Shown here: piece after piece, positions 6,478 through 58,460 of the stretch
How positions within the stretch are numbered: the stretch's first letter is position 1
Layout of the letters: every line of letters starts with the position of its first letter
Origin: a virus
Lineage: Duplodnaviria; Caudoviricetes
Length of the DNA stretch: 64,000 nucleotides
IMG/VR virus record: IMGVR_UViG_3300050123_000025
Coordinates: 300 to 64,299 of that record
Strand: one strand, 5' to 3'
Position numbers and translations under genes: made by a program
Notes under the pieces: model-generated
Databases searched by the model: none
Told to the model about the DNA's origin: nothing
Seen by the model: the letters and a program-made list of their open reading frames with translations, nothing else

Positions 6478-6685
6478 GGCTTGTCCTCCTTCTAGTAAAA
6501 TAAACTCTCTTGCCTTCTTCTCCTATGCACCGGGACCCCACAGTCGTTTTTACACCGGGACAACCTCCCAGGCGGCTGGTTACCACCTGTATCAGCATGC
6601 ACGCAAACGGTTTGCCTTTCGGAGAGTAGGTTATTCAGTTGTTTCCTTTCTGGTAGATTTTAAGTATTAAAATAATATGGTTGGG

Positions 6686-6898
6686 TTACGCGGTTGCTCG
6701 TGTCTCGTCGATTAGTTTAGAGATTGGGATTTCTAGTGCTTTGGCAAGTTTCTCCAGAGTGAGTAGTGTTGGGTTCATCTGCTTGCCGTTTTCTAGCCGG
6801 GAAATCATGTCCGGTCTGATGCCGGTAAGTTTTGAGAGTTTTCCTTGCGATATGCCTAGTTTTTCGCGATTTTTCAATATGGCTGTATATCTTAGCAT
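6686..6898 (-). CDS. Cro-like XRE HTH regulator
   Basis: ISQGKLSKLTGIRPDMISRLENGK; divergent from repressor. Confidence 0.85.
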   Translation of the reverse strand: MLRYTAILKNREKLGISQGKLSKLTGIRPDMISRLENGKQMNPTLLTLEKLAKALEIPISKLIDETRATA

Positions 6899-6931
6899 TT
6901 TTGGTATGCCCTCCCTTCATAGGATAATATT

Positions 6932-6960
6932 AATCTAACTTTGTTTGCGGTTAATGTCAA
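6932..6960 (-). promoter_or_regulatory. SigA-type promoter for the cro operon
   Basis: TTGACA-17 bp-TAGATT on minus strand. Confidence 0.75.
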
Positions 6961-7101
6961 TAGCATAAAACGCATATTAATAAAATGACAAAATGAAAGA
7001 AAATTATAGAAAAACATTAAAAAACACTTGCAAACGTTAATAACATCATTTACTATTGACATATAAAGCAATAACATAAATAAAAAAGGGGGAAACAAGA
7101 G

Positions 7102-7494
7102 GTGATAGGAGAAAAAATACAGGAAATATTAAATGCCAAAGGTTTAACACAGGTCGATTTGGCAGAAATGGTAGGTATGTCAGGAACACAAATTAACCGA
7201 ATCTGCAAAGGGCATGGGATTCCCAATGGGAAGAATATTGATAAAATAGCAAAGGCATTAGACGTGCCAGCACATGCGCTTTATAGCGAAGAGGACGTAT
7301 ACAGCTCTGTTTTAGCTCTTAAAATATTAGAGCAATTACCAGAAGATATTGTTAGGGCTATTGGGAATAAAAAAAATTTAAACTATTTAATCATGGGCTT
7401 AAATTTGAGTGACAGCGAATTGTCGCCAGAAGAAATTAAAATGGTGGTGAGGAAACAAGAGGAACTAATAAAGGAGATAGAAGGAGGGAAGTAA
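7102..7494 (+). CDS. CI-like XRE HTH repressor (no S24 peptidase domain)
   Basis: LTQVDLAEMVGMSGTQINRICKG; upstream of integrase. Confidence 0.85.
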   Translation: MIGEKIQEILNAKGLTQVDLAEMVGMSGTQINRICKGHGIPNGKNIDKIAKALDVPAHALYSEEDVYSSVLALKILEQLPEDIVRAIGNKKNLNYLIMGLNLSDSELSPEEIKMVVRKQEELIKEIEGGK

Positions 7495-7513
7495 TTATTG
7501 GAAATTAAAAATT

Positions 7514-7539
7514 AATAAGGCTTAACGCCTTATTTTTTT
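7514..7539 (+). terminator. Intrinsic terminator
   Basis: AATAAGGC-TTAAC-GCCTTATT followed by T-tract. Confidence 0.7.
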
Positions 7540-7721
7540 CACATGGAGGTGATACATGACGCATGAAACAAATGTTCTGTAAGGTTTGAGGGAATAATGT
7601 AAAGGAAGTGAAATAATGGTTTTAGTATGTACAGAATTGCCTATAAACATAGCATTTGTTATTAATATTCAGGAGGACATGCTAACAATTAATAGTCTCA
7701 CGCTAGAGGAGGTTTTAGTTC

Positions 7722-8657
7722 GTGACGGACGAACAGTTACAGAAATATTTAAGGAAGTGTGCAGCCAGGGGCTTGGGGGACAAAACTATCCGAAATTATC
7801 ATATCAACTTATTGACCTTTGAAAAATGGCGCGGAGATAAGCTATTAATTGAATTGGTTGAGGATGATATTGATGATTATATTTTCTACCTTAAAAAAAT
7901 AACTACTATCAACGACACTACATTAAATAACAAACTACGTGATCTCCGAGCCTTTTTAAAATTTGCGCATTCGCGAGGTTGGTGTGATGAGATTGAGATT
8001 AGATTATTGAAAGTGCAGGAGCCGGACATAATACCGCTGGAAGATGACCAGTTGAGGGAAATTTACGATGCTTGTAATATGAAGAAAAAATTAGACAGGG
8101 TTAGAGATTATACTATTATGCGGTTACTGGAGGAAACGGGTATTAGGCTCTCGGAGTGTATGGGATTAGAGTTTAATGATGTTAACATCAAGGTCGGTAG
8201 CGTTAAGCTTAAGAAAACAAAAAACAAAAAGGCCAGGGAAGCTTATCTTACCCCGGCAATGAAAAAAGATTTGAATTTATACCTAGAAGCGCGCAAACAC
8301 TTCTTGGCAGCAAATGGATTGGAGAACAAAACTGATATATGGATAGCCGTTAAAGCTCCTAGTAAGGGCAAGGCTGTATCCGCAAGAACTATCCAAGAGC
8401 AATTGCATAAATATGGAGAAATGGCAGGGATACCCGTGAGGGTGTCCCCCCATACTTTTAGGCATACGTTCGCAAGAAACTTTCTGATTAACGGTGGTGA
8501 TATTTTTACCCTTCAAGAACTTCTGGGCCATTCATCTTTGGAAATGGTTCGTCGCTATGTCCGTCTATTTGACAAGGACAAGCAAAACTCTTATTTAAAG
8601 GTGATGGAAAAGCGTCAAAAAGACAGAAAAAGAAATGGGAAAAAACCTTTCCCATAA
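7722..8657 (+). CDS. int: Tyrosine integrase
   Basis: TGIRLSE, KTKN, SPHTFRH, LLGH, RRY catalytic motifs; next to tRNA. Confidence 0.92.
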   Translation: MTDEQLQKYLRKCAARGLGDKTIRNYHINLLTFEKWRGDKLLIELVEDDIDDYIFYLKKITTINDTTLNNKLRDLRAFLKFAHSRGWCDEIEIRLLKVQEPDIIPLEDDQLREIYDACNMKKKLDRVRDYTIMRLLEETGIRLSECMGLEFNDVNIKVGSVKLKKTKNKKAREAYLTPAMKKDLNLYLEARKHFLAANGLENKTDIWIAVKAPSKGKAVSARTIQEQLHKYGEMAGIPVRVSPHTFRHTFARNFLINGGDIFTLQELLGHSSLEMVRRYVRLFDKDKQNSYLKVMEKRQKDRKRNGKKPFP

Positions 8658-8674
8658 ACTAGTATTAAAAATTA

Positions 8675-8759
8675 TGGTGCGGGCGAGAGGTTTCGAACCT
8701 CCACGTCTTTCGACACCAGATCCTAAGTCTGGCATGTCTGCCAATTCCACCACGCCCGC
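8675..8759 (-). tRNA. tRNA-Leu (anticodon TAG), complete with CCA; likely overlaps attP
   Basis: GCGGGCG acceptor, GGAATTGGCAGAC D-arm, CCAGA-CTTAGGA-TCTGG anticodon arm, long variable arm, GGTTCGAAA T-loop, ACCA end. Confidence 0.93.
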
Positions 8760-8927
8760 TTGCTGTTTGCGCTATATAACATATTTGGTAATAACATTTA
8801 TGTCATATAGCATAAAATCCTAAGTCTTACGTTACAAAAAACATGGTTGTAACCGAAGATAGAACCGTGTTCATAAAATAAACAAAAATTAACATTTATG
8901 TTATATACATTTTATTCAAAAGGACAA

Positions 8928-8955
8928 GCAATTTCTTGATAATAGGCGCATACCT
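8928..8955 (+). promoter_or_regulatory. SigE-like sporulation promoter candidate
   Basis: GCAATTT-14 bp-CATACCT ahead of the FtsK module. Confidence 0.4.
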
Positions 8956-8998
8956 ATGGAATACACAGATAAATCTATATAGAAAAGGAGGTTTTAGT

Positions 8999-9253
8999 AT
9001 GTTCGCAAAATCCAAAGACAGTCTGTTAATTATGGCAATGGTAATTATTGGGCCATACGTTTTAGAGCTATTCCGGTTTCCGCTTGAGGAGCATCATAAA
9101 GTTGGTTTTTTCTTCATTGGCCTTGCTGCTATCCTGCAAATTTGGTTACAGCAAACATCCGAGATTGACAAAATAGGGCAGGTGTTCGAAGCCAAAAAAG
9201 TTGATGTAGGCGGGAAGTTCCCACGGCTCGTAAAGGAGGCCAGTAATGATTAA
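8999..9253 (+). CDS. Two-TM membrane protein, probable N-terminal anchor of FtsK
   Basis: AAGGAGG RBS; two hydrophobic helices; 8-nt overlap with FtsK. Confidence 0.7.
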   Translation: MFAKSKDSLLIMAMVIIGPYVLELFRFPLEEHHKVGFFFIGLAAILQIWLQQTSEIDKIGQVFEAKKVDVGGKFPRLVKEASND

Positions 9254-10211
9254 GAATCGGTATAGTTATATTCTCCCCATCGGTCTTGCTCCCAGTAAAA
9301 TAGAGGGTTGCAGGGAAGAGCTTGAAGCAGCTCTCGGTGGTCATTGCGATTTTGAAATTAATGGCCGGGTGGTTACAATTACCGCCTATAAAGGCAAATT
9401 GAAAAAGCGGATTAAGTACCGCCGCCCGGAAGTTGATGAAGGCTTAATTATCCCGATTGGTTACGGCATGGAGGGTGAGTTAATAATTCTAGATATGTCC
9501 TCTGACTCGCATTGCTATCTGCTCGCTGGCGGTAATCCTGGGACAGGGAAAAGCGTATTTCTAAATGGCTGTATTGACTGTATAAGCCAGTATCCGTCTG
9601 AACATGTGAGGTTTGTTTTTATTGACATGAAAATGGGCGTGGAGCTGGGGAGTTGGTATAGTCTACCGCACAAATGGTTAACAGCAGAAGATCCAACAAG
9701 GCCCGAACTAAAGCATGTATTAACTCAATTGTTAGCAGAGATTAAAAAGCGTATGAAGCTATTCAAGGCGGCAGGGGTCAAAAAAATATCAGATTACAAT
9801 AGGGCTTTCCCCGATAAAAAAATGAACTATATTATGGTTATTGTGGACGAATACGCGGAGATAAAAAACAGTGACAATGGGGACGAATATGAAGTGCTCA
9901 TGAAGTCTGCTTTACAGATTGGCAGGGCTGCGGGATTAAGAGCGATTGTGGCAACTCAAAGACCCACCACGGATTGTATTTCCGGCACAGTTAAAGCGGT
10001 GTTCACTGATCGCATAGCCTTTGCGGTATCAAGCGCGTTAAATAGCCGGGTGATACTAGATTCCGATGGAGCCGAGAAACTTCCTAATGATGTACCTGGC
10101 AGGGCGATATTCCTCACGGGCTCACGATTTCGAGAAGTGCAAGTCATGGACTACTCGTCCCCAGTTCTACAGGTTATACCTGATACGGAATACATGGAGT
10201 CCACGGTCTAA
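9246..10211 (+). CDS. FtsK/SpoIIIE-family ATPase
   Basis: AGGNPGTGKS, IDMKMGVE, VIVDEYAE, GRAAG, ATQRP, ILDSDGAEKL, PGRAI. Confidence 0.92.
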   Translation: MIKNRYSYILPIGLAPSKIEGCREELEAALGGHCDFEINGRVVTITAYKGKLKKRIKYRRPEVDEGLIIPIGYGMEGELIILDMSSDSHCYLLAGGNPGTGKSVFLNGCIDCISQYPSEHVRFVFIDMKMGVELGSWYSLPHKWLTAEDPTRPELKHVLTQLLAEIKKRMKLFKAAGVKKISDYNRAFPDKKMNYIMVIVDEYAEIKNSDNGDEYEVLMKSALQIGRAAGLRAIVATQRPTTDCISGTVKAVFTDRIAFAVSSALNSRVILDSDGAEKLPNDVPGRAIFLTGSRFREVQVMDYSSPVLQVIPDTEYMESTV

Positions 10212-10330
10212 TCATATCAGTAGTAGACAAGCATGGAATGGCTATAGAATGGGTTTTTAAAATGGCCTTAGAATAGGCGAGCGAGTTTGAAAAACGAGAG
10301 AGACTATTCTAGTAGACTGGAGGTAACAGT

Positions 10331-10951
10331 ATGCAGGCATACGGCAAGAGTAGGGATATAAAAGTATTGGAGGGGCTAGATGGGTTTAGATACATGACTA
10401 CCCCGCAAATTGCAGCTTTATATTTTACTACCATAAAAAAGCAAGAGTTCCGAATTAAGAAAACCTGTGAGCGAATGAAACGGATGTTTGATCGGGGCTA
10501 TGTCCAGCGATTTAGGTTCCCGTCCGAGCCTTATATATTTACTACCGGCGGGAACAAGTACAACCGACAAATACAACATTATTTAATGATCGTGGATTGC
10601 TGGATTACTTTGCAAAAATTAAGGCCATCTGGTGGGTCGCTGAATTACCAGGTGGAAATTAAACAGGATGGCGTACAAACTGATTTAGCCGTGGAATATA
10701 CGAACAATTTCCGAGGTGAGAAGAAGTTATATTGGATTGAAGTGGAGAATGAATCAACGGGGGACATAACAGAGAAGATTAAGAATTATGAGGGGCTACA
10801 GTGGTCAAGGCAGGTTAATAACTTGCCGGCGGGTGCATTGGTCATCGTCTACAAGAAACGTGCAACCTTAGCGAAACTACAAGGTGTTAGTTTTGAGATG
10901 CCGGTGAAATTGATACACTTTAGCGAGTTTGCGGAAAAATGGGAATGGTAG
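10331..10951 (+). CDS. Replication-relaxation (Replic_Relax)-like protein: wHTH + PD-(D/E)xK
   Basis: RDIKVLEGLDGFRYMTTPQIAALYF; HYL; TDLAV...WIEVEN. Confidence 0.75.
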   Translation: MQAYGKSRDIKVLEGLDGFRYMTTPQIAALYFTTIKKQEFRIKKTCERMKRMFDRGYVQRFRFPSEPYIFTTGGNKYNRQIQHYLMIVDCWITLQKLRPSGGSLNYQVEIKQDGVQTDLAVEYTNNFRGEKKLYWIEVENESTGDITEKIKNYEGLQWSRQVNNLPAGALVIVYKKRATLAKLQGVSFEMPVKLIHFSEFAEKWEW

Positions 10952-11021
10952 TCTTTGAAGCGGTTACATTGTAACAAATATAAAAAGAGAGAGCAAAAGC
11001 GCAGGCGAAACTGAAAGGAGA

Positions 11022-11255
11022 TTGTGGAATATGACAGGATTAGCGGTATTTATCGTTGCTTGCTTGGGTTTACAGGTGATACTTCATCGGGACAAGAATG
11101 ACCGTAAGAGATTTAAAGAGATTGGAATATTGATTGAAGCAGAAAAGAAAAGGCGACTCAAAGAGGAAAAACTTAGGACTGTCCGCATAAAACACCCTAA
11201 AGTAATTTACCTCGATGATTTTAAAGCCGCCCTTCCCACACAAAGAATAATATAA
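11022..11255 (+). CDS. Small single-TM protein
   Basis: AAGGAG RBS, N-terminal hydrophobic helix. Confidence 0.6.
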   Translation: MWNMTGLAVFIVACLGLQVILHRDKNDRKRFKEIGILIEAEKKRRLKEEKLRTVRIKHPKVIYLDDFKAALPTQRII

Positions 11256-11337
11256 TATGACCTGCGTTCTCTCCTGGGGTTTAAGGGTTTATCCCGCCCC
11301 ATACATATCATACCCCACTCACACATAATTATTCACA

Positions 11338-11369
11338 AAAAAAAATAAGCCCCATGTGCGGGGCTTTTA
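11338..11369. terminator. Bidirectional terminator between convergent units
   Basis: A-tract, AAGCCCC-ATGTGC-GGGGCTT, T-tract. Confidence 0.7.
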
Positions 11370-11371
11370 AC

Positions 11372-12052
11372 TTACAACCAATCTGTCTCCTTAACTTTTT
11401 TCCTTAAGTCAACGTCGCAAATTTCTGTATAAATTGTTGTAGTTTGAATATTCATATGCCCGAGCAAATGTTGTACTTCTCGGATATTATACCCGATATT
11501 GAGTAATGTTGTTGCAAAAGTATGGCGGAAATTGTGAGGGTGTACTTTGGTTCGTTGCCGCCCATCTTGTATATATACTTTTGCCCTTGCCCCTATCTCG
11601 TAACACATTTCCCTGACGTTACGGTCGTGTAGTCTACCGCCCTTTCGGTTACAAAAATACCAGTTAGATTCGGGCCGTATGGCCTCCCATACTTCTAGGG
11701 CGGCTTTAAGTTGTTCCCCTATAGGTATGTGCCTGTCAGCGTTGCATTTGCCTTCCTGCACGTATATGTCACCCTCTATCATGTCAACATCCGACTTAGA
11801 TAGATCGCATAGTTCATTCAGCCTTAACCCTGCCCGTAAAAAAGTTTGAATTATCGCGGCTTGGCGAATCCCTGTTGCTGTATCTGCATTAATTGCTGCC
11901 AAATATTTTTCTATTTGAGGTGGCTTTAGGATCTTGGGAAGTTTTCGGGTCTTATGCTTCTTTGCTAGCTCCGGCTGGCTTAGGTCGATACCCAGCAACT
12001 CCGCTACCTGCTGGGCTTTCTCGGGGTCTAGTTTGTTTAGGTCTATGTTCAT
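11372..12052 (-). CDS. Second tyrosine recombinase (short, Xer/resolvase-like)
   Basis: AGLRLNE, EGK, HPHNFRH, LLGH, TTTIY; lacks N-terminal arm/SAM domain. Confidence 0.9.
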   Translation of the reverse strand: MNIDLNKLDPEKAQQVAELLGIDLSQPELAKKHKTRKLPKILKPPQIEKYLAAINADTATGIRQAAIIQTFLRAGLRLNELCDLSKSDVDMIEGDIYVQEGKCNADRHIPIGEQLKAALEVWEAIRPESNWYFCNRKGGRLHDRNVREMCYEIGARAKVYIQDGRQRTKVHPHNFRHTFATTLLNIGYNIREVQHLLGHMNIQTTTIYTEICDVDLRKKVKETDWL

Positions 12053-12071
12053 GGTTTGGCCTCCTTACTTG

Positions 12072-12100
12072 CGCCGGGATTTACCGCCCGGCTCGGCGGG
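12072..12100 (-). repeat. Pseudoknot-like intergenic repeat, copy 4
   Basis: CCCGCCGA-GCCGGG-CGGTAAAT-CCCGGC-G then AAGTAAGGAGG. Confidence 0.7.
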
Positions 12101-12102
12101 AT

Positions 12103-12309
12103 CTATTTCGTTTCTTTTTTTATTGCTTTTTCCAAACACTCGGGGCATAGATTTTTACCCTTGTAATTCCTAAATCCTTTTTGTAATGCCCATTCTATGG
12201 AATTTGTTCTATCATCGGCATCTGCACCCGGACGACCGCAGTCATCACAATTAATTAAATAGACTACATATTTATCTTTTGTATGCAGTTTTTTATTTCC
12301 TTTTCTCAT
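12103..12309 (-). CDS. Zn-ribbon protein
   Basis: CDDC...CPEC. Confidence 0.65.
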   Translation of the reverse strand: MRKGNKKLHTKDKYVVYLINCDDCGRPGADADDRTNSIEWALQKGFRNYKGKNLCPECLEKAIKKETK

Positions 12310-13114
12310 AATCTAATCCTCCCTTTCTACCTGCTAACTTAGAGACTATTTCCTTCGCCAGCCTTTCCGCATCATGGCCCCTGTATCTCTGCCATGCTCC
12401 GTTGGTAGGGCTCCAGCGGAATCCGTTCTTTTTTAACTGTTCTCTAATGTTTGCGTCCGGCTTATTAGGGAATATGATCTGTAGCCTTTGAGCTTCGAGG
12501 TTGTCAATTATTTTGATGCCGTTAATTTCGACTGTCTGCTCCTCGATGGTGGTAGTTGCCGCCTGTTCCGCCAGTCGCTCAAGGTGCGCAATTCTGTCCC
12601 TAATACCTTTAATTCTGCCGTTGCCGTTACTTGTCATCCATGCCGGGTGAGGCTCTTGCCCTTCTTTGCGCAATTGTTTGTTTTCAGCTATTAAAGCGGC
12701 GTGGTTCTCTAATTCCTTGGCTAACTTTTCCTGCAGTTTTTCGATGGCGTTCGCATCGTCAGACTTGATTATTTTGTCACCGTTTACTATTGCCCATATT
12801 TTACTGTCAATGTCTTTAATATCGTCATATTCAGCCCATAACGTACGCTCGCGGCTTAAATATTTTTCATGCGCCCTCATGTTATAGTTTGATGGCCCGG
12901 AAATCATCATACTTACATGACTGGCTCCGTTAGAGTTGTATTTATTTGTCCAGCTGGCATAATTCGTTGTATAGCGGGCTAATAAGCTGTCTAAACGGGT
13001 TTGCGCTTCGGGTGATACTTTAGCCTTGGCCTGCTCTATTTTCTCCCTAGCGTCTTGGATGGTTGCGTTATATTCTGCGGTTGCGCTGCCTTCGTTGTAG
13101 TCACTAAAACTCAT
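12293..13114 (-). CDS. DUF3560-like protein (N-terminus possibly frameshifted, real start 13152)
   Basis: SFSDYNEGSATAEY, MISGPSNYN, RLQIIFPNKPD...GFRWSPTNGAWQR. Confidence 0.7.
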   Translation of the reverse strand: MSFSDYNEGSATAEYNATIQDAREKIEQAKAKVSPEAQTRLDSLLARYTTNYASWTNKYNSNGASHVSMMISGPSNYNMRAHEKYLSRERTLWAEYDDIKDIDSKIWAIVNGDKIIKSDDANAIEKLQEKLAKELENHAALIAENKQLRKEGQEPHPAWMTSNGNGRIKGIRDRIAHLERLAEQAATTTIEEQTVEINGIKIIDNLEAQRLQIIFPNKPDANIREQLKKNGFRWSPTNGAWQRYRGHDAERLAKEIVSKLAGRKGGLDYEKRK

Positions 13115-13151
13115 GTTTTCTTTGCTCTACGTGCCAATTGTTCGTTAATCA

Positions 13152-13658
13152 TTAGTCAAGCACCTCCCGGTTAAATTCCTGCCGGTCATGTATCGGGATG
13201 GGGTAGTTGTTAACTTCCCCAAAACGACTATCGCAAGAATAAATAAAATTGCCGCCCATCATCCAGCCGCTTCCCGTTGGTCTGTCTAATGGTTCACAGT
13301 GGATATAAGGATTACCGCAAATCTTACGCCTTACAAGTTTAACGCCCGGCGCATCTTCTGACGGTTCATACATTTGCGGAATGCCTTCGCCTATAACGGT
13401 TAATTGTTTTACTGTTGAGGATATGCCGTGATTAGTGCAATCGCCTAGTCTCTGCTCTTTAAATACGCTTACAATCATACCCATTGGAGGGCGTTCTACT
13501 TTTATACACTTCTGCATGTTGTCCTCTGGTTCTCCGTCTGCGCCGGTTCCAAGGTTAAAGATTCTATTCAGAAAATAAGCCTGTGCGTCCTCAAAGGTTC
13601 CATTAATTCGAGTGGTAATTGTGTCTCCGTTTTCATAAATACGTTTTACAGTTATCAT
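13152..13658 (-). CDS. Two-domain hypothetical phage early protein
   Basis: ITTRINGT...YF; DCTNHGISS; MMGGNF...DSRF...PIPIHDR. Confidence 0.75.
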   Translation of the reverse strand: MITVKRIYENGDTITTRINGTFEDAQAYFLNRIFNLGTGADGEPEDNMQKCIKVERPPMGMIVSVFKEQRLGDCTNHGISSTVKQLTVIGEGIPQMYEPSEDAPGVKLVRRKICGNPYIHCEPLDRPTGSGWMMGGNFIYSCDSRFGEVNNYPIPIHDRQEFNREVLD

Positions 13659-18951: not shown

Positions 18952-19475
18952 TTGTATATCTATGCAGTATTCAGTATATAGACTGCATATTATGCAGTAT
19001 TGACAGTTATTAGGTGATATATGGCTTAAAAGTAATCCGCATTGAACTCATTTAGGATAAACAGTATTGATTGATAGGATTAGTATGATGTGTGCTGCTA
19101 CTGTGATGATAGTATGCTGTTACTAGTCAAGGTTAGCGGCAAAGCCAGTTAATTAGTAGGACAGCAAAGCAGGTTCTAAGAGCCAGCGGTTAGCAGAGGT
19201 AGAGCAGGAGACAGCGGTGCAGGCTGACGGGAATGACCCCCCGTATGCCACCCCTGGGCCTCGCACACCAGCACTATACAGAGTATGTTGTCTGCGCAGT
19301 AAAATATATTTCCCACAGCAACCCCCCCTATGCTTACCTGGAAATAAAAGGAACCCCTATGGGGTAGGCATATTTTAATTATAAAGCATCTTCATGGCGA
19401 GGGTGTTTTTTAATGTCATAAATTGAGGAATTGCCGGATAACTACCGGCCCCCTCTTATATTTAGGAGGGATTTC

Positions 19476-20261
19476 ATGTTAATAGATCATACATTATTTG
19501 GAGTGGTTGACAAGGTAGCCATTGCTATTGAGCGACTAAAGGCGTTTAAGCCACCAGAGGGTTATTACGGCGCATTTTCAGGTGGTAAGGATTCAGTAAC
19601 TATTAAAAGACTTGCCCAGATGGCTGGTGTAAAAGTGGATTGGCATTACTCACTTACTACTGTTGACCCGCCCGAATTAGTTCAGTTCATCAAACGAGAG
19701 CATGGGGACGTGATTATTGAACGACCAAAGAAAACCATGTGGCAGTTGATCCCGCACAACCTAATGCCTCCGACGAGATTGGCCCGCTACTGTTGCCGGA
19801 TACTAAAAGAAGGTGGAGGGGAAGGGCGAGTTGTTATAACTGGAATACGGCAACAAGAAAGTGTTAAGCGGTCAAAGAGACAAATGGTTGAACAGGACAG
19901 GAAAGACAAAACAAAAACATACTTAAACCCAATTATAGACTGGTCAGAATCAGATGTTTGGGAGTTTATAAGGGGTTATGGAATACTGTATTGCAGTTTA
20001 TACGACGAAGACTTTACCAGATTAGGTTGCATTGGCTGCCCAATGGCAGGAACTAAAGGTCAACTAAAAGATTTCACTAGGTGGCCGAAATATAGAGCCG
20101 GATACCTAAGGGCTTTTGAAAAAATGATACAGGAGCAAAAAAAGCGAGGTAAAGAACCAAATTGGCACACGGGCGAAGAAGTCATGGCCTGGTGGCTTCA
20201 AATGTCAGGGCGTGGTGGAATATCGCAATGCAATGACGACCAGACCGTAATGTTTGAGTAA
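19476..20261 (+). CDS. PAPS-reductase-family (PP-loop, Fe-S) protein
   Basis: AFSGGKDS, RYCC, GIRQQES, PIIDW, RLGCIGCP. Confidence 0.88.
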   Translation: MLIDHTLFGVVDKVAIAIERLKAFKPPEGYYGAFSGGKDSVTIKRLAQMAGVKVDWHYSLTTVDPPELVQFIKREHGDVIIERPKKTMWQLIPHNLMPPTRLARYCCRILKEGGGEGRVVITGIRQQESVKRSKRQMVEQDRKDKTKTYLNPIIDWSESDVWEFIRGYGILYCSLYDEDFTRLGCIGCPMAGTKGQLKDFTRWPKYRAGYLRAFEKMIQEQKKRGKEPNWHTGEEVMAWWLQMSGRGGISQCNDDQTVMFE

Positions 20262-24237: not shown

Positions 24238-26931
24238 GTGGTGATAAATATAGCAACCGCACAAGCTAGGGCTAAATCAAAATCTAAAAACAAAATAGAC
24301 ATACCCTGGAAACCACAGGATAGGCAATTAACCTTTCTAAGGGCTTGCGGGATGTCGCACCCTTTTGATGGTGGAGGACCAAAGCCGCCGGTTGCTGTAT
24401 TTATTGGCTATGGTGGAGCGGCGGGCGGCGGAAAATCGGACTCTCTTGTAGGCGTAGCGGTGATTGCAGGTTTGACATTTCCGGGCATTAACATTGGTCT
24501 TTTTAGGCGTACCTACTCGCAGTTAGAAGGACCGGGGGGTATCATCTTAAGAAGTCAAGAATTGATGGCTGGTTGGGCTTCTTATAACGGTGGTATGCGT
24601 AGATGGACAATGCCTAATGGGTCTTTGCTACAGTTCTGCCATTGCGAAAATGAAAACGATGTTTATAATTATCAATGTTTTACACCGGACACGGAGGTAT
24701 TGACACTTGACGGTTTTAAATTCGTATCTGCTGTAAAAGTAGGGGAAATGATAGCAACCATGAATCCTGAAACTAGGATAATGGAATATAAGCCAGCAAG
24801 TAAAGTGTATAAATATCATTTTGATGGAGAGTTGGTTGTGTCCGATAGTAAGCGCAGAGGAGTTTCTTTTGCAGTTACACCTAATCATACTATGTGGGCA
24901 GGAACCGTAAGAAAACCTAAGATAAGACCATTTAGGGCAGATGAATTGCCTAAAGAAGCTGTGTTCCCTACTTATGCAAAATGGGAAGGAAATAAACCGT
25001 TAGAAGTTATCACTTTTAACAAGATTGGCAATAACGGTAAATCTTACTCATTTAAAAGTCAAGATTGGGTAAGATTTTTGGGTTGGTATATTTCAGAAGG
25101 TTCTCGCAGGAATAGTTTAAAGGGTGGATATAGGATATATATTTCCCAAAAGAACGAGGAAGGTAGAAACGAAATTCGTGACCTTCTTGATAAAATGGCG
25201 ATTAATTATTATGAAGGCAATGAAGATTTTGTTTTAGCTTCAAAACCAATATGCGAATATTTGGGGAAATTTGGCATTAAAGCAGATTGTAAAGAACTAA
25301 CGCCTGAGTTAAAAACACTGGATATTGAACACTTGGAAATACTATTGGATTCCTTGGTAGCAGGGGATGGAACTTGGTATAAACGGGGCTATCAAGGCCA
25401 TTTTGTTTCGTCCTCAAAAAAACTTGCTGATGATGTTATGGAAATTGCTATAAAATGCGGATATCGGGCAAGTATTACCGAACAACAAGGTAATGATGAA
25501 AAAAGTCCGTATGGAACTAAGCCAAGATACCATGTTTCTCTTTATAACAAACAAGGGGATACCCGGACAAGGAATATTAAACGTGAGAAATATTGTGGGG
25601 ATGTTTATTGCTTAACCGTCCCCCCACACCACACTGTTCTCATTAGACACAAGGGTAAAACAATGTGGACAGGGCAGTCTCAACAATTCGATATTTTACT
25701 GTTTGACGAAATGACGCAGTTTAGCGGCACTCAAATAAGATATTTATTATCCCGAAATAGGGCCACAAAAAATGGAGTAGTTCCATTTACGGCAGGGGCA
25801 ACAAACCCTGGCGGAATAGGGCATTTATTTTTCAAGGAACAATTTGTAGACCCTGGTGAACCGGAACAAGTTCATGATGTTGAAGTTGAACCGGGTATAT
25901 TTGAGAAACATATCTTTGTTCCTGCGAGGTTAGAGGATAACCAAATACTAGAACGCCGTGACCCTGGATACAGAGCTAAGTTAGAAGCACAACCAGAAGA
26001 AGTAAGAAGGGCCTTGTTGTATGGCGATTTTGATGTATATAGCGGTAGGTTTTTTACGGAATACGATAAGCGCATTCACGTTATTCCTTCCTTCCAAATC
26101 CCCGTATGGTGGAAGAGGGCAAGGAGTCTTGACTATGGACTTGATATGACCGCCTGTATCTGGTGGGCAATATCTGATTCCGGTCAATGCTACGCATATA
26201 GGGAATTGCATCAACCAGGATTAAATTTGACAATGGCGGCAAAGAAGATAGTCGAAATGACCCCGGCAGACGAGCATATATCATACACTACCGCTTCCCC
26301 TGATTTATGGAATCGTCGGCAAGAGACGGGGGCCTCGGGCATGGAATTGATGTCAAAGGCCGGTCTTAAGGGGTTAGTGAAGGCTAGGCATGATAGGATA
26401 CAGGGTTGGAGGGTCATGAGGGAACATTTGCAACCCTACGAGATAATTAGCGAAGATGGCGGGGTTATTCTTGACGAATACGGTAATTCAAAGAAAATGG
26501 CACAGATGCAGATATTTGAGAACTGCAAAAACATGATTAAATATATCCCATTATTGCAACATGACGAACACAATGTGGAGGACGCATCCAATACACCACA
26601 CATCGTTTCGCATATTAATGAAAGTTGTTTAACTGGTGATACCATAGTAAATACCGTTGATGGTGATATTCCAATTAAAGAACTGGTTGGCAAAAGCGGT
26701 CAAGTTTATTGTTTCAACCTTCAAAATAATTCCCCTGTTATTGGGGAATTTTCTTTTGTCCATCTTGCCCGGTCAAATGCAGAGATATATGAGGTTGAAC
26801 TAGAAGATGGGCGGATATTTAAAGGTACACCTGATCACAAGGTATTAACTCAATGCGGGTGGAGGGAAATTCAGTATTTGTTACCGGGTGATGATATTGT
26901 CGAAATCGGTTTACCGCAAGGGGGGATTTAA
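24238..26931 (+). CDS. terL: Terminase large subunit, N-terminal part (cis intein + N-half of split intein)
   Basis: GGAAGGGKS, LLFDE, ATNPGGIGH, LDYG, SPD motifs. Confidence 0.93.
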   Translation: MVINIATAQARAKSKSKNKIDIPWKPQDRQLTFLRACGMSHPFDGGGPKPPVAVFIGYGGAAGGGKSDSLVGVAVIAGLTFPGINIGLFRRTYSQLEGPGGIILRSQELMAGWASYNGGMRRWTMPNGSLLQFCHCENENDVYNYQCFTPDTEVLTLDGFKFVSAVKVGEMIATMNPETRIMEYKPASKVYKYHFDGELVVSDSKRRGVSFAVTPNHTMWAGTVRKPKIRPFRADELPKEAVFPTYAKWEGNKPLEVITFNKIGNNGKSYSFKSQDWVRFLGWYISEGSRRNSLKGGYRIYISQKNEEGRNEIRDLLDKMAINYYEGNEDFVLASKPICEYLGKFGIKADCKELTPELKTLDIEHLEILLDSLVAGDGTWYKRGYQGHFVSSSKKLADDVMEIAIKCGYRASITEQQGNDEKSPYGTKPRYHVSLYNKQGDTRTRNIKREKYCGDVYCLTVPPHHTVLIRHKGKTMWTGQSQQFDILLFDEMTQFSGTQIRYLLSRNRATKNGVVPFTAGATNPGGIGHLFFKEQFVDPGEPEQVHDVEVEPGIFEKHIFVPARLEDNQILERRDPGYRAKLEAQPEEVRRALLYGDFDVYSGRFFTEYDKRIHVIPSFQIPVWWKRARSLDYGLDMTACIWWAISDSGQCYAYRELHQPGLNLTMAAKKIVEMTPADEHISYTTASPDLWNRRQETGASGMELMSKAGLKGLVKARHDRIQGWRVMREHLQPYEIISEDGGVILDEYGNSKKMAQMQIFENCKNMIKYIPLLQHDEHNVEDASNTPHIVSHINESCLTGDTIVNTVDGDIPIKELVGKSGQVYCFNLQNNSPVIGEFSFVHLARSNAEIYEVELEDGRIFKGTPDHKVLTQCGWREIQYLLPGDDIVEIGLPQGGI
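24676..25677 (+). mobile_element. Cis intein (334 aa) with LAGLIDADG endonuclease, C-terminal Gln
   Basis: YQ|CFTPDT, VTPNH, FLGWYISEG, LVAGDG, VYCLTVP...WTGQ|SQQFD. Confidence 0.9.
26626..26928 (+). mobile_element. Split intein N-fragment (101 aa)
   Basis: ES|CLTGDTIV, GTPDHKVLT, GW...LLPGDDI then stop. Confidence 0.9.
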
Positions 26932-49293: not shown

Positions 49294-49557
49294 GTGTTGC
49301 GGTTGAGTTTTGAAGAAATTGCTGAAAGAAGGTTGAACGATCATGGTGAGCGGCTAAGGGCATTGGAGATTAAAGACGCCACGCAGAATGCGAAAATTGA
49401 TTCACTGTGTGAGAAGCTAGAGAAATTGTCCGATGACATAAAGGCTTTGGTAGAATTTATGAAGGCTATCCTTTGGAAAACCATCGGCGGTATGGGCGGG
49501 TTGCTGGTTATATTTCTAGGGTTCTTCGTCTGGTATGTTCAGAACTTAGCAAAGTGA
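49294..49557 (+). CDS. XhlA-like holin/haemolysin
   Basis: RLNDHGERLRALE coiled coil + C-terminal TM ending FFVWYVQ. Confidence 0.8.
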   Translation: MLRLSFEEIAERRLNDHGERLRALEIKDATQNAKIDSLCEKLEKLSDDIKALVEFMKAILWKTIGGMGGLLVIFLGFFVWYVQNLAK

Positions 49558-49568
49558 GGGAGGTAAAT

Positions 49569-50552
49569 ATGGATTATAAATTTGGTTCAATCCAATCCCC
49601 GGTAGATTACCGGGATTTTTTGTATAGGGCGATATTTGATACACAAGTATTACCCCGCAAGTTCAGTCGCCGGTCTGAAATGGGGCCGGTTCGCAACCAA
49701 GGCAGTTTTGGATCTTGCGTAGCATTTGCCAGTGCAGGGGTCAAAGACAGTCAAGAGCGCAGGGAATACGGCGCAAACATTCAGACTAGCCCTTTGTATA
49801 TCTACAAGCGGTGCAAGGAGCAGGACGGCATACCAATACAAGAGGGGACTTATCCAAGGACGGCAATGAAGGTATTGACTGACTTGGGAGTGTGTCCAGA
49901 GGAAGTATTTCCTTACAGATTAATGAGTTGGCCCACGATGCCAAGCGTGCCTGCTGATGCTGATAAGAGGGCTGCTGTCTACAAGATAGGAGCCTATGCT
50001 CGCATCGGTACAGTGGACGAAATCAAACAGGCCATATTTAAGGACGGGCCGGTATTGGGCGCAGTATTGGTCTGTGACAGTTTTATTAATGCGAAGGGTG
50101 GGTTCATACCTATGCCCGGCAGCATGGGTCGTGATAACATTTGTGGCGGTCATGCCATTTGTGTTACTGGCTATGATGATGACCTGCAATATGATGGGCA
50201 TACTGGCTACTTGGAGTTTAGAAATAGTTGGGGCGACGGCTGGGGCAATGGGGGCTATGGTTATATTTCTTATGATTTTGTTAATTATAGAGATTCCATT
50301 GGTATGCCATATTGGCAGGAATCGTGGAGTAGTATCGATATCGTTCTACCGTCTATAGCTTGCAAAGAAGGATGGCTGTATATAGGTAAAACTGATGCCA
50401 TACTTGATGGAGCATTGACACAACTAGACCAAGCACCCTTTGTCGATCCAGATAGTAACCGGACATTAGTACCCATGCGGTTCATGGCTGAACACATGGG
50501 TTATAAGGTGGATTGGGATGGAACTAATCAGTCAATTCACTTCTACCGGTAG
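49569..50552 (+). CDS. Papain-like (C1) cysteine peptidase + Cu-amine-oxidase-N-like domain
   Basis: NQGSFGSCVAF, GGHA, FRNSWGDGWG; RTLVPMRFMAEHMGYKVDWD. Confidence 0.88.
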   Translation: MDYKFGSIQSPVDYRDFLYRAIFDTQVLPRKFSRRSEMGPVRNQGSFGSCVAFASAGVKDSQERREYGANIQTSPLYIYKRCKEQDGIPIQEGTYPRTAMKVLTDLGVCPEEVFPYRLMSWPTMPSVPADADKRAAVYKIGAYARIGTVDEIKQAIFKDGPVLGAVLVCDSFINAKGGFIPMPGSMGRDNICGGHAICVTGYDDDLQYDGHTGYLEFRNSWGDGWGNGGYGYISYDFVNYRDSIGMPYWQESWSSIDIVLPSIACKEGWLYIGKTDAILDGALTQLDQAPFVDPDSNRTLVPMRFMAEHMGYKVDWDGTNQSIHFYR

Positions 50553-50562
50553 GGAGGCAGAT

Positions 50563-51135
50563 ATGAATAAAACATTTATACTCCTGCATCACTCGGCAAC
50601 ATGGGATGATAAAACTAAAAGGGATTTTGACGCTATTAAGGCCGGGCATATTGCTATTGGTGATCGAGACATAGGCTATCACTGGGTTATTGAGTTTGTT
50701 GATGGACAATTGGTAGTTGAACAGGGTAGGCAGGAAACAGATAGCGCAGCGGCCTGTCCGGGCAAGAACTTTGACGCTATCCATGTTTGTCTAATAGGCA
50801 ACTTTGAAGAATCCACGCCTACAGAAGAGCAATATCAGGCTGTAGCCGACAAGTGCAAGGACATAATGACCCGCTGGCCTATAACTACAATCGGGAGGCA
50901 TAAGGACTATTACGCCACTGCCTGTCCGGGTGCTAACTTCGATGTTGAGCACGTGAAGGAATTAATGAAAGGAGGAGATGAAGTGCTGACTGATATAAAA
51001 GTAATCGTCAAGGGGCAGGAGTTAACCGGCAAGTTGATTGACAATGTGACCTATGCACCGGCTAGGGCGTTGGTGGATTTACTGAACTATCAGGTGAGCT
51101 ATGATGCGACTGACAAGGTTGTAAATATTAAATAA
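50563..51135 (+). CDS. Endolysin, N-acetylmuramoyl-L-alanine amidase (Amidase_2)
   Basis: LHHSAT, DIGYHW, CLIGNF, HKD...TACPG. Confidence 0.9.
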   Translation: MNKTFILLHHSATWDDKTKRDFDAIKAGHIAIGDRDIGYHWVIEFVDGQLVVEQGRQETDSAAACPGKNFDAIHVCLIGNFEESTPTEEQYQAVADKCKDIMTRWPITTIGRHKDYYATACPGANFDVEHVKELMKGGDEVLTDIKVIVKGQELTGKLIDNVTYAPARALVDLLNYQVSYDATDKVVNIK

Positions 51136-56529: not shown

Positions 56530-57630
56530 CTATCCCTCCTTAAATAATGATGGTTCAATACTTGCCATTCTTGGCCTAATAATGTCCTCACAATAATTAA
56601 GGCTTAATTCAATGCCTATACTGTCAACGCCCAATTGTTCAGCAACCCATAACGTGGTTCCGGATCCGGCAAACGGTTCTAATACTGTACACGGTATGGT
56701 TTCATCTATATCACATGAACAAGTTGGTTGCCATTTATCAGTTGTTCTTGTTGTCGGTGCCCATCCGGTGCTATCTGTTTTGGTTGGGCAATTATTAGGG
56801 GCGTGGGCGGGTTCGCGTTTATTGATGTGGCCGGTGAGTTCCGTTATTCTTTTCCAAGGGGATCCGCACTTCGGACAACAACCTTTCTCGCTTGTTCCTG
56901 CCTTAATGCATGTTTCCGGTATCTCTGGTGGGAAGGTTGCAAAATGTGCTTCACTAAATGGCTTTGTGGATATATTCCAGACGGTGCGTTTGTTTTTACC
57001 TTGCTCTCTACGGTCCTCGAGTGATTTAATATCAACTGGCTTTATCCCTCGATAATCTTTTATACAGGTTTGTTTTCCCCATCGTTCCCATTTTACTTCT
57101 TCTTTTATAGCCTCTGCATCGTAGTAATATCTCTCGCTTTTGGACAGCAGGAAAATATACTCATGCGCCTTTGTTGGCCTATCAGTAACGCTTTCCGGCA
57201 TTGGGTTTGGTTTGCTCCATATAATGTCCGAGCGAAGATACCAACCGTCTGCCTGTAGGGCAAAGGCTATGCGCCAAGGAATACCTACTAGGTTTTTAGG
57301 CTTAATGCAGTCGGTTCGGCATCTATCGCCAGGTGCGCGCCTTGGAGCTTTGGGATCAGAAAAATTATCTGTCTGCGCCTTACTTGCATAAGAATCTCCG
57401 AGGTTAAGCCATAGCGTTCCATCGTCCCGTAACACTCGTTTGACTTCCCTGAACACCTCGACCATCTTGGCAACATATTCCTCGGGTGTAGATTCCAACC
57501 CCATCTGACCATCTATTCCGTAATCGCGTAGTCCCCAATATGGTGGACTTGTTACGCAACAATGGACTGATTCATCCGGCAAGGTTTTAAGCATTTCCAA
57601 ACTATCGCCTTGATATAGTTGCCATGTCAC
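56530..57630 (-). CDS. DNA methyltransferase (N4/N6, beta class) with Zn-ribbon insertion
   Basis: TSPPY, PNPMPES..DR, HFATFP, EPFAGSGTT. Confidence 0.92.
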   Translation of the reverse strand: MTWQLYQGDSLEMLKTLPDESVHCCVTSPPYWGLRDYGIDGQMGLESTPEEYVAKMVEVFREVKRVLRDDGTLWLNLGDSYASKAQTDNFSDPKAPRRAPGDRCRTDCIKPKNLVGIPWRIAFALQADGWYLRSDIIWSKPNPMPESVTDRPTKAHEYIFLLSKSERYYYDAEAIKEEVKWERWGKQTCIKDYRGIKPVDIKSLEDRREQGKNKRTVWNISTKPFSEAHFATFPPEIPETCIKAGTSEKGCCPKCGSPWKRITELTGHINKREPAHAPNNCPTKTDSTGWAPTTRTTDKWQPTCSCDIDETIPCTVLEPFAGSGTTLWVAEQLGVDSIGIELSLNYCEDIIRPRMASIEPSLFKEG

Positions 57631-57668: not shown

Positions 57669-58460
57669 TTATTGGATTTGCGTTCCTTCCCAAAGGTTAG
57701 GCATAATGCTGTTTGTAACAGTCTGAATTGGAGCAGCGAGAGGATATAATATTTCATTGAACGACTTAATGTATTCTTTCTTTATTTCAAAACCATAAGA
57801 TTTTCGACCCAGCATCTCAGCGGCAATTAATGTGGTTCCGCTTCCAGCGACCGGGTCAATCACAACGTCCCCAACATCCGTAAATATTTCAATAAGATTT
57901 TTCAAAACATGGATTGATTTTTGTGTCGGATGAATTTTAGGGGTTATGTTGTCCCGTTCATATTCCATACAGTTAAAAACCATTTTGCCGTTATTATTAA
58001 ATTTAGGTAGTTTATCCCGATACAGCACTAATCCATATTCACAGTTACCAACAACCCGCATGTTCGCTTTTAAAACCTGTGCAGAATAATTTTTGCGAAA
58101 AACAAGATTTATATAGTTAGGAAAACCGTATTTTTTACCTTGTTCTATAAGCAAAAACTGTTGTTCAAACTCGCAAAAAACCAACATGCATCCAGCTTGT
58201 CCTCTCTCTTTCGGCTCTTTTTTGAGCATTGTATTAACAAAGTGCATAAACTCGGGTATTTTGAAATCATTATCTGTGTCAAAAAAAGATGTTTTAGCCA
58301 ACTTACTTTCACCGTTTTTATTGTCACCATCCTTATACCATTTTGGGCTGGAAGCGAAAGCATTTGTTGAAAGATTATAAGGAATGTCCGCTATAATCAG
58401 TTGTGCTTTGGGAATACCGTATCTTTTATAATTTTGAAAGTGGTCATTGTATAAATTCAT
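57669..58460 (-). CDS. DNA methyltransferase (N6/N4)
   Basis: ADIPY, HPTQK, DPVAGSGTT. Confidence 0.92.
   Translation of the reverse strand: MNLYNDHFQNYKRYGIPKAQLIIADIPYNLSTNAFASSPKWYKDGDNKNGESKLAKTSFFDTDNDFKIPEFMHFVNTMLKKEPKERGQAGCMLVFCEFEQQFLLIEQGKKYGFPNYINLVFRKNYSAQVLKANMRVVGNCEYGLVLYRDKLPKFNNNGKMVFNCMEYERDNITPKIHPTQKSIHVLKNLIEIFTDVGDVVIDPVAGSGTTLIAAEMLGRKSYGFEIKKEYIKSFNEILYPLAAPIQTVTNSIMPNLWEGTQIQ

Follow-up and report, generated by a model that had tools for sequence, protein, structure and literature searches.

The 64,000-nucleotide stretch analysed here (the window) comprises bases 300-64299 of the 64,299-bp IMG/VR record IMGVR_UViG_3300050123_000025, a tailed-phage genome with direct terminal repeats and an estimated completeness of 100%. 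Beside a tRNA-Leu gene and between two tyrosine recombinase genes, both matching PF00589, it carries a cassette of four genes: a small membrane protein (orf1), an FtsK-type ATPase, a winged-helix nuclease and a second small membrane protein (orf4), with a spacer separating the ATPase and nuclease genes (Table 1). We consider this cassette to be, very probably, a divergent member of the pair of FtsK/SpoIIIE and replication-relaxation (RR) genes found in Bacillus phages and described there as a "DNA translocation operon". A reading of the sequence alone (the original prediction) had placed these genes beside the tRNA and between two recombinases, behind a SigE-like promoter, and had proposed that they transfer phage DNA independently of virions. 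That observation is sound except for the promoter, and the transfer interpretation is a reasonable one that has already been published as a hypothesis.

Table 1. The cassette and its surroundings, in positions of the window (cassette and its control regions first, flanking features below).
Feature	Position	Strand	Evidence or remark
Promoter-like region	8915..8956	+	sigma-70-like TTCAAA-17-GATAAT (8915-8943) overlapping GCAATTT-14-CATACCT (8928-8955)
orf1, putative detached membrane anchor of the ATPase, 84 aa	8999..9253	+	hydropathy; colinearity; fused forms in relatives
FtsK/SpoIIIE/TcpA-type P-loop DNA translocase, 321 aa	9246..10211	+	PF01580 E 9.9e-21; phrog_1358 E 4.9e-68
119-nt spacer	10212..10330		two 17-nt direct repeats 10237-10253 and 10261-10277 (spacing 24); 8-bp inverted repeat 10269-10276 / 10304-10311
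Replic_Relax / MOB_C-family protein, 206 aa	10331..10951	+	N-terminal winged helix and C-terminal PD-(D/E)xK fold
orf4, small single-pass membrane protein	11022..11255	+	probable true start ATG 11031, 9 nt after AGGAG
G+C-rich terminator-like hairpin	11347..11366		between orf4 and the recombinase gene, which converge; flanked by A/T runs
cro-like gene	6686-6898	-	start of lysogeny corner
cI-like helix-turn-helix (HTH) repressor	7102..7494	+	PF01381 HTH_3 E 1.5e-14; phrog_8; same strand as integrase and cassette
Bidirectional terminator-like hairpin	7514-7534		after cI-like gene
Phage tyrosine integrase (XerC/D-like)	7722..8657	+	PF00589 E 7e-34; SAM-like N-terminal domains; phrog_1
Complete tRNA-Leu(TAG)	8675..8759	-	ARAGORN; Rfam RF00005 52.3 bits; 18 nt from integrase stop
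Second copy of tRNA anticodon-loop 11-mer ATCCTAAGTCT	8817..8827		first copy 8720-8730, about 97 nt away
Short Xer-like tyrosine recombinase, 226 aa, catalytic domain only	11372..12052	-	PF00589 E 4.8e-39

The product of the second gene is an FtsK-type ATPase, as had been proposed. Matches in the PDB, to the FtsK motor (2ius, E 4.1e-29) and to TcpA of pCW3 (6o1w, E 7.2e-21, residues 51-300), agree with those to Pfam and PHROGs, and the residues G96, G99, G101, K102 and S103 (Walker A), D201 and E202 (Walker B) and R239 are invariant in seven relatives. The protein has the motor of FtsK/SpoIIIE proper with both Walker motifs, but neither the gamma domain (FtsK_gamma gave no match at E <= 0.1) nor a multi-pass N-terminus, hydropathy finding no transmembrane segment in its 321 residues; the FtsK equivalog model scored 101 bits against a cut-off of 1566. 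It shares with TcpA the position of a TcpA-like, FtsK-type ATPase gene upstream of a relaxase-family gene. The NCBIfam model plasmid_TraB (E 2e-4) reached 20 bits against a cut-off of 800, and PADLOC matches, to the SspH, mad8 and HerA models, concern the generic FtsK domain only.

Searches and a structure model confirm that the third gene encodes a winged-helix, PD-(D/E)xK protein of the Replic_Relax type. PF13814 (Replic_Relax) matched at 29.4 bits, above its cut-off of 25.3, across residues 14-70 only (the N-terminal 57 residues), and phrog_2190 matched over the full length of its profile (E 4.3e-9, residues 6-187). An AlphaFold model built with 17 homologues (predicted local distance difference test score, pLDDT, 90.8; predicted template modelling score, pTM, 0.87) superimposed residues 5-74 on winged helices of the MarR/ArsR type (Z 9.6, root-mean-square deviation (rmsd) 1.5-1.7, about 60 residues aligned), and residues 77-206 on BstEII (Z 10.0, rmsd 3.0, 122 aligned), the small subunit of R.BspD6I (Z 9.0) and the nickase N.BspD6I (Z 8.7, rmsd 4.0, 120 aligned). 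Residues D118, E137, E139 and K149, among others, are invariant in all 17 homologues, and a D...ExE triad is the arrangement of BamHI. Moreover, the model matched an Atlas cluster (TM 0.85) in which 97% of the members carry PF13814, and the same family is precomputed on 14 of 19 homologues (query excluded). In common with MOB_C relaxases, whose motifs we took from reviews, the protein scores above the gathering threshold of PF13814 and joins a winged helix to a PD-(D/E)xK fold with conserved acidic residues and a lysine; the VirD4-type coupling protein and type IV secretion system (T4SS) of that class are absent, the partner here being of the FtsK type. A tblastn search of 50,697 phage records with the nuclease returned no match, and a pattern scan derived from the nuclease alignment yielded 64 pattern matches in 185,579 species genomes, none of them confirmed. 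The best PDB sequence hit of its profile had E 0.96, and hhalign of the profile against single Bacillus-phage sequences gave probabilities of 0.9-1.7%.

The open reading frame (ORF) of orf1 spans 8936-9253, the likeliest start being the ATG at 8999 behind AAAGGAGG. Its product had been described as crossing the membrane twice. A strong hydrophobic helix is present at residues 9-27 (Kyte-Doolittle 1.95), whereas a second, shorter stretch at about residues 35-50 falls below the 19-residue threshold used to call transmembrane segments. The stop codon overlaps the start of the ATPase gene by 8 nt, and AAGGAGG precedes that start. Homologues of orf1 lie directly upstream of the ATPase gene in the related loci L015 (58% identity), L011 and L009, L013 has a small ORF with a transmembrane segment in the anchor position, and in L003 and the Bacillus phages Eoghan, Pony and Tavor_SA a transmembrane helix is fused to the ATPase itself. 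Because L015 has an extra ORF between the anchor and ATPase genes, the split is real rather than a sequencing error. When orf1 was compared by BLASTP with the N-terminus of the FtsK-like protein of Tavor_SA, no alignment was significant (E 0.074, in an unrelated part); it is colinearity and the fused form in L003, rather than sequence similarity to the Bacillus phages, that suggest a gene split in which orf1 supplies the anchor.

A predicted complex of orf1 with the ATPase scored 0.36 (runs 0.39, 0.36 and 0.35; best of three controls 0.00), the runs agreeing in at least 86% of contacts with a partner pLDDT of at least 70. The mark used for this score is reached by 58 of 80 solved complexes and by 2 of 110 mismatched pairs; scores of 0.60 or less comprise seven of the solved complexes and both mismatches, and are mostly wrong unless the pair is likely beforehand. 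Since fused forms exist, this pair is likely beforehand, and the model lends weak support to the idea that orf1 may bind the ATPase. The intervening ORF of L015 (6717-6971 of that locus, 84 aa) is very acidic and has no PADLOC match; it could encode a protein of the DNA-mimic type.

The second membrane protein expected after the nuclease gene is orf4, with one N-terminal transmembrane helix (residues 4-22, score 2.07) followed by a charged helical tail. Homologues found by tblastn lie directly 3' of the nuclease gene in nine loci (L002, L009-L015 and L020). The gene is present in every locus that has downstream sequence and a nuclease at least 55% identical to that of the window, and in none of seven more distant loci. 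No family was found for it in Pfam, PHROGs, PADLOC or NCBIfam, and PADLOC 2.0 gave zero families for the nuclease, orf1 and orf4. Taken together, profile and structure searches upheld the gene identifications.

Within the spacer, the best 14-mer repeat (12 of 14 positions) was equalled in 2 of 200 dinucleotide shuffles. Blocks of the spacer are conserved with L008, L011, L015, L016, L017 and L019, loci whose proteins are only 45-70% identical. Judged from these sequence features, the spacer is a reasonable candidate for a binding or nick site, and for the promoter and/or leader of the nuclease gene. RNAalifold found zero pairs in a consensus RNA structure of the related spacers and did not bear out an inverted repeat that had seemed, by eye, to covary in them. 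Public assemblies tend to break near the spacer and the beginning of the nuclease gene: run X2 has a contig ending at 10334, with the following one starting at 10352, and run X3 has a gap at 10006-10093. These breaks may reflect strain variation.

Of 49 candidates from a protein search with the nuclease, 20 passed at E <= 0.001, all of them metagenomic. Scans yielded three viral and 17 metagenome loci which, with one record present in both sets, make 19 distinct loci. Of the 13 loci that extend at least 300 nt upstream of the nuclease gene, 10 have an FtsK gene immediately before it, as judged by tblastn. The order in L015 is cro, cI, integrase, tRNA-Leu, anchor, ATPase, nuclease and orf4, followed by lysis genes with no second recombinase. 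L003 has the cassette behind a cI-like gene and a gene for a large serine integrase; a tyrosine recombinase is encoded on the opposite strand, 3.4 kb beyond. L011, within a 138.7-kb contig, is the end of an integrated prophage and reads glycosyltransferase, Xre regulator, anchor, ATPase, nuclease and orf4, with genes for lysis and the tail coming after them. The cassette is a dispensable unit situated near att.

In the related phage L004 (= L023; 5288-5590), cI, integrase, tRNA, anchor and ATPase are gone, as is the greater part of the nuclease gene; what is left is a purine-rich leader and about 29 nuclease codons beside the cro operator region, with an HNH-like gene in the gap. In L017 (2196-3054) the integrase match ends at residue 156 and the ATPase match begins, two bases on, at residue 173, which looks like a deletion fusing a truncated integrase to a truncated ATPase.

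The remark in the original prediction that similar gene pairs occur in Bacillus phages proved correct. A tblastn search with the Pony nuclease (Pony_27) matched at least 105 phage records (Bacillus 97, Geobacillus 6, Staphylococcus 2); among the matches listed, an FtsK-type gene overlaps 35 of 40, the other five being unannotated or "hypothetical". The order of ATPase then nuclease recurs in Eoghan (gp66/67), Pony (26/27) and Tavor_SA (gp26/27). With the window ATPase as query, 409 phage records were found, from phages of Bacillus (277), Mycobacterium (52), "Bacteriophage sp." (30), Listeria (10), Staphylococcus (8), Geobacillus (8) and others. The cassette of the window has the features of this family: both protein families are present, and the nuclease gene comes directly after the ATPase gene on one strand of a phage genome. 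On plasmids, the 137-kb pBkBDGP4A of Cytobacillus carries an HTH / small ORF / FtsK / RR cassette and is typed by MOB-suite as "mobilizable, relaxase MOBC", and a circular Priestia "plasmid" of 41.6 kb combines holin, lysin and AimR genes with the order HTH / small ORF / FtsK / RR / integrase.

The family has a published history. According to Pathria et al. 2012 (PMC3357382), the "DNA translocation operon" of the B. thuringiensis phage 0305phi8-36 encodes a relaxase related to MobC of CloDF13, a translocase and separately encoded membrane proteins; HHpred tied the phage relaxase family to CloDF13 MobC (4.4e-22), and homologues were listed in SPO1, GBSV1, Bacillus virus 1 and the Gamma/Cherry/Fah/Wbeta phages, with integration or recombination genes adjoining in lysogenic phages. 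The same paper already proposes "propagation-by-translocation" without a phage particle. PF13814 is given as the MOB_C relaxase family in PMC5357655. For TraX of pAD1, PMC12857230 describes a winged helix, a restriction-enzyme-like active site, binding to direct repeats of the origin of transfer (oriT), and no covalent intermediate.

The promoter is the part of the original prediction that did not hold. The motif itself is present upstream of the cassette, with GCAATTT at 8928-8934, 14 nt, and CATACCT at 8949-8955. Sites matching the SigE consensus equally well or better numbered 49 on both strands of the window, against 43.2 +/- 8.2 expected from 100 first-order Markov randomisations, and the CATACCT stretch has no counterpart in the syntenic relative L015; as a SigE promoter, the match is neither better than chance nor conserved. 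Sigma-70-like sites are likewise not enriched, with 13 in 6500-12500 against 15.7 +/- 3.7 expected. The 7-mer RGACAAG, common to the region upstream of orf1 and the spacer, occurs 23 times in the window against 12.3 expected and is too short to carry meaning.

The window encodes a tailed-phage gene set (terminase, portal, major head protein, primase-helicase, Sak4-like protein and exonuclease), the primase-helicase matching phrog_239 (E 1.7e-87). The lysogeny corner runs cro-like, cI-like, integrase, tRNA-Leu, the four cassette genes, hairpin and Xer-like recombinase. With cI, integrase and tRNA adjacent, the phage looks integrative. At the equivalent positions L015 has an integrase homologue (47% identity) and a tRNA-Leu(TAG), the tRNAs of the two phages differing at many positions. 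The 11-mer ATCCTAAGTCT of the anticodon loop occurs at two sites only in the window, a number reached by 28 of 100 shuffles and so not rare; its second copy lies in an island to the right of the tRNA that is conserved in L015 too, the region in question being 8675-8830 in the window and 6191-6330 in L015. This copy is possibly an attP core for the anticodon loop of a host tRNA-Leu, with the phage bringing a replacement tRNA. Contigs from four public runs contained no integrated junction. The right-hand recombinase scored far below the cut-offs of the XerA, XerC and XerD models; because a homologue (49% identity) is kept in the cassette-less L004, this gene belongs to the phage backbone and not to the cassette.

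The host is probably a member of the Bacillota. An exact 45-nt match to the 3' half of the tRNA was found in none of 185,579 species genomes, and megablast of 7000-12200 found no near-identical DNA among phages or plasmids. A sigma-70-family factor encoded at 58516-59067 (-) matches TIGR02937 above its cut-off (E 3.1e-19); among specific models it comes closest to SigK, SigB/F/G and SigE, though far under the cut-off of each, a hint of a spore-forming host and of unusual phage promoters. The lysis enzymes at 49473-51135, and those of L011 at 10634-12612, combine a papain-family Peptidase_C1 protein carrying the wall-binding domain Cu_amine_oxidN1 with an Amidase_2 protein, which in L011 also carries Cu_amine_oxidN1; this common make-up is a lead to the host group. 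Elsewhere in the window, the large terminase ORF (24238-26931, 897 aa) gives a stretched match, residues 58-653 against profile positions 171-472, with weak matches to other families within and beyond it, which points to an inserted element, for instance an intein or fused domain. The products of 19431-20261, 56530-57630 and 57669-58460, one with a PAPS-reductase domain and two of them DNA methyltransferases, look like anti-restriction or DNA-modification functions.

We suggest, at a probability of roughly 40%, that the cassette serves site-specific nicking and membrane-anchored pumping of phage DNA. The nuclease would bind a specific site on the circular phage DNA, likely the repeat-bearing spacer upstream of its own gene, and would nick or cut there as MOB_C relaxases do at oriT. 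A hexameric FtsK/TcpA-type ATPase, held at the membrane by orf1 and possibly orf4, would pump the DNA at or through the membrane or septum, and the phage genome might in this way reach a sister cell, a forespore or, via a resident conjugative pore, a recipient without a virion. The proposal is carried by the domains, the conserved catalytic and Walker residues, the gene order and coupling, the conservation in 19 loci and the family membership. The genes look co-transcribed, and an intact motor is combined with an intact nuclease active site at the att-proximal end of temperate phages. That the nuclease binds at the spacer, that it nicks DNA, that the ATPase is anchored, and in which direction and to what end DNA is pumped are predicted parts of the scheme. 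Virion-independent transfer would fit the anatomy of the cassette. Its self-contained form, in which the nuclease opens the genome at an oriT- or clt-like spacer and the pump drives it across the septum, into a forespore or to a conjugative pore, is more doubtful.

Several observations weigh against this proposal. Six of ten related spacers show no repeat beyond nearly all shuffles, unlike those of the window, L009, L011 and L015; L014, L019 and L020 have a nuclease gene without an FtsK gene upstream; and L004 keeps the phage backbone of exonuclease, cro and short recombinase having lost the cassette. Foldseek of the nuclease against the PDB returned nothing at E <= 0.001, its weak list consisting mostly of PD-(D/E)xK nucleases including BamHI, and the PF13814 match, at 29.4 bits, is limited to the winged helix. 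The phage encodes no AAA_10 (T4SS ATPase), so that a conjugative route would need a helper, and of the 14 plasmids on which tblastn finds a relative of the nuclease, 13 are classed as non-mobilizable. The sole published deletion, that of the 0305phi8-36 operon, caused no growth defect and no plaque phenotype (PMC3357382). Finally, in their survey of 144 streptococcal integrative mobilizable elements (IMEs), Coluzzi et al. 2017 (PMC5357655) report that TcpA-type coupling proteins never occur with PF13814/MobC relaxases, so the FtsK-MobC pairing is not a recognised mobilisation module there.

Four further explanations bear on the same evidence. The cassette might maintain the prophage as an episome, the nuclease being a plasmid-type replication or nicking protein, and the ATPase and Xer-like recombinases segregating and resolving circular prophage copies, in a plasmid-prophage lifestyle or as the excised circle. 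Authors working on Bacillus phages have interpreted the two genes as serving plasmid replication or segregation (PMC9658697, PMC11526630), PMC8026635 lists Replic_Relax proteins for a number of putative plasmid prophages, the name of the Pfam family refers to plasmid replication and relaxation (PMC3424549), the 41.6-kb Priestia phage-like circle carries the cassette, and both recombinases of the window are Xer-like. We nevertheless think this unlikely: the adjacent cI, integrase and tRNA look integrative, L011 is an integrated prophage end, no ParA-type ATPase (AAA_31) was found in the genome, and a primase-helicase encoded by the phage itself makes it unlikely that the cassette is the main means of replication. 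Moreover, the FtsK gamma domain, which activates XerD, is missing from the ATPase. The presence of the cassette in 0305phi8-36 and SPO1, phages described as lytic in PMC3357382, counts against episome maintenance and also against a moron expressed in the lysogen for exclusion or defence, with a membrane-anchored ATPase and a nuclease intercepting incoming foreign DNA. Such a role would suit a moron-typical place between attP/integrase and the remaining genes (in L011 at the extreme end of the prophage, beside lysis genes), the cassette's own promoter-like region and terminator-like hairpin, its location on the strand of cI and int, and the Xre-type regulator in front of it in L011 and L003. 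It would also suit the dispensability seen in L004 and in the 0305phi8-36 deletion (PMC3357382), and an ATPase-plus-nuclease make-up that resembles many defence systems, the ATPase domain matching SspH, mad8 and HerA. Against it, PADLOC has no model for the nuclease, orf1 or orf4 and sees only a generic FtsK domain in the ATPase, and the Fah FtsK-like gene is delayed-early in ordinary infection, as stated in a review (PMC4113786); a defence role seems quite unlikely to us.

SigE-controlled transfer of phage DNA from mother cell to forespore is improbable. SpoIIIE-type pumps move DNA into forespores, 103 of the 105 phage records with a nuclease homologue come from Bacillus or Geobacillus (a count biased by the Bacillus-phage query), and the models nearest to the phage's sigma factor include SigK, SigB/F/G and SigE, albeit far below cut-offs. 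Speculation about sporulation, the forespore or DNA translocation has accompanied the FtsK/SpoIIIE homologues of B. cereus-group phages (Gamma/Wbeta), as PMC4113786, PMC4197329 and PMC3359378 show. However, the SigE-like motif is at chance level and not conserved, the tRNA search of 185,579 species genomes left the host without a match, phage records from Mycobacterium (52), Listeria (10) and Staphylococcus (8) also contain FtsK-like genes, two of the nuclease homologues belong to Staphylococcus phages, and the review (PMC4113786) has the Fah gene expressed in ordinary infection. Still less credible, and in our view highly improbable, is a separate small IME nested in the phage genome. Compact layouts of coupling protein, relaxase and integrase genes define IMEs (PMC5357655), recombinase genes lie on both sides of the cassette, and the cassette also occurs on plasmids. 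Yet there are no direct repeats around 8830-11370, both att-like 11-mer copies lie to the left of the cassette, its G+C resembles that found in the remainder of the phage, the right-hand recombinase stays in the cassette-less L004, and the position behind the phage integrase is found again where the integrase is of an unrelated type (a tyrosine enzyme in L015 as in the window, a serine enzyme in L003). Contigs of all four public runs, one of which may be the source sample, carry the region unchanged and contain no joint removing the cassette; one contig of run X4 alone has a joint that skips 12079-13338, which lies outside the cassette, and the shorter side of this joint measures 26 letters. 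The absence of flanking repeats and the unchanged region in four runs speak against a nested, separately mobile element.

Few unexplained gene pairs are as widespread in phages of Gram-positive spore-formers as that of FtsK and nuclease, with at least 105 nuclease and at least 409 ATPase records, and the cassette described here extends the pair to uncultured phages well beyond the cultured Bacillus set. It also indicates that the membrane anchor can be a separate subunit, and offers the spacer as a concrete candidate cis site. If phage DNA does move without virions, views of phage spread, of carriage in spores and of the overlap between phages, plasmids and conjugation would change; if export is self-contained, phages of Bacillota well beyond Bacillus would have a second route of spreading. 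The copy in the window is by itself one data point and does not answer the question of function.

Among known systems, TraB of Streptomyces is a membrane-bound FtsK-type pump that moves the double-stranded DNA of a circular element to a neighbouring compartment via the repeat-bearing cis site clt. TraB recognises DNA through a winged-helix domain of its own and works without a nuclease, whereas in the window the winged helix is on a separate nuclease, and by score the ATPase is no member of the TraB family. TcpA (of pCW3, the Tn916/ICEBs1 family and streptococcal IMEs) resembles the window in having an FtsK-like ATPase gene just upstream of a relaxase gene. Its N-terminal membrane anchor is part of the same protein, in contrast to the separate polypeptide found here, and its partners, in the 144 elements surveyed, are relaxases of the Rep or tyrosine-recombinase type and never PF13814 proteins. 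The MOB_C relaxases TraX (pAD1) and MobC (CloDF13) share with the nuclease their small size, PF13814, a winged helix joined to a restriction-endonuclease-type domain and a direct-repeat cis site near the gene, that of the window being a candidate. They work with VirD4-type coupling proteins and a T4SS, whereas the window has an FtsK-type partner and encodes no T4SS, its Pfam match covers the winged helix only, and its nickase role is predicted.

Closer still are the phage operons. That of 0305phi8-36 and its homologues likewise place a MobC-family protein with an N-terminal HTH beside a translocase, encode separate small membrane proteins, are dispensable, and in lysogenic phages lie beside integration or recombination genes. 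The 0305phi8-36 operon differs in its VirD4/TraG-like ATPase (AAA_10) and its VirB6- and MreB-like genes; the window has no AAA_10, an FtsK/TcpA-like ATPase as in the Gamma group, and an orf4 without a known family. The pair of the Wbetavirus, Andromedavirus and Pagevirus phages (phrog_1358 and phrog_2190) has the same families, order and coupling, and in Bacillus and Geobacillus siphoviruses it often follows the lysis genes near a recombinase. Compared with that pair, the window nuclease lies beyond the reach of tblastn and the ATPase is at most about 34-40% identical, the host is uncultured, and the lysins carry Cu_amine_oxidN1. There is a separate transmembrane anchor, a 119-nt spacer in place of the overlap between ATPase and nuclease genes, and the additional orf4. 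What is new relative to these systems is therefore a divergent clade outside the cultured Bacillus phages, in which the anchor is a gene of its own, a fourth gene is conserved and the spacer bears phased repeats.

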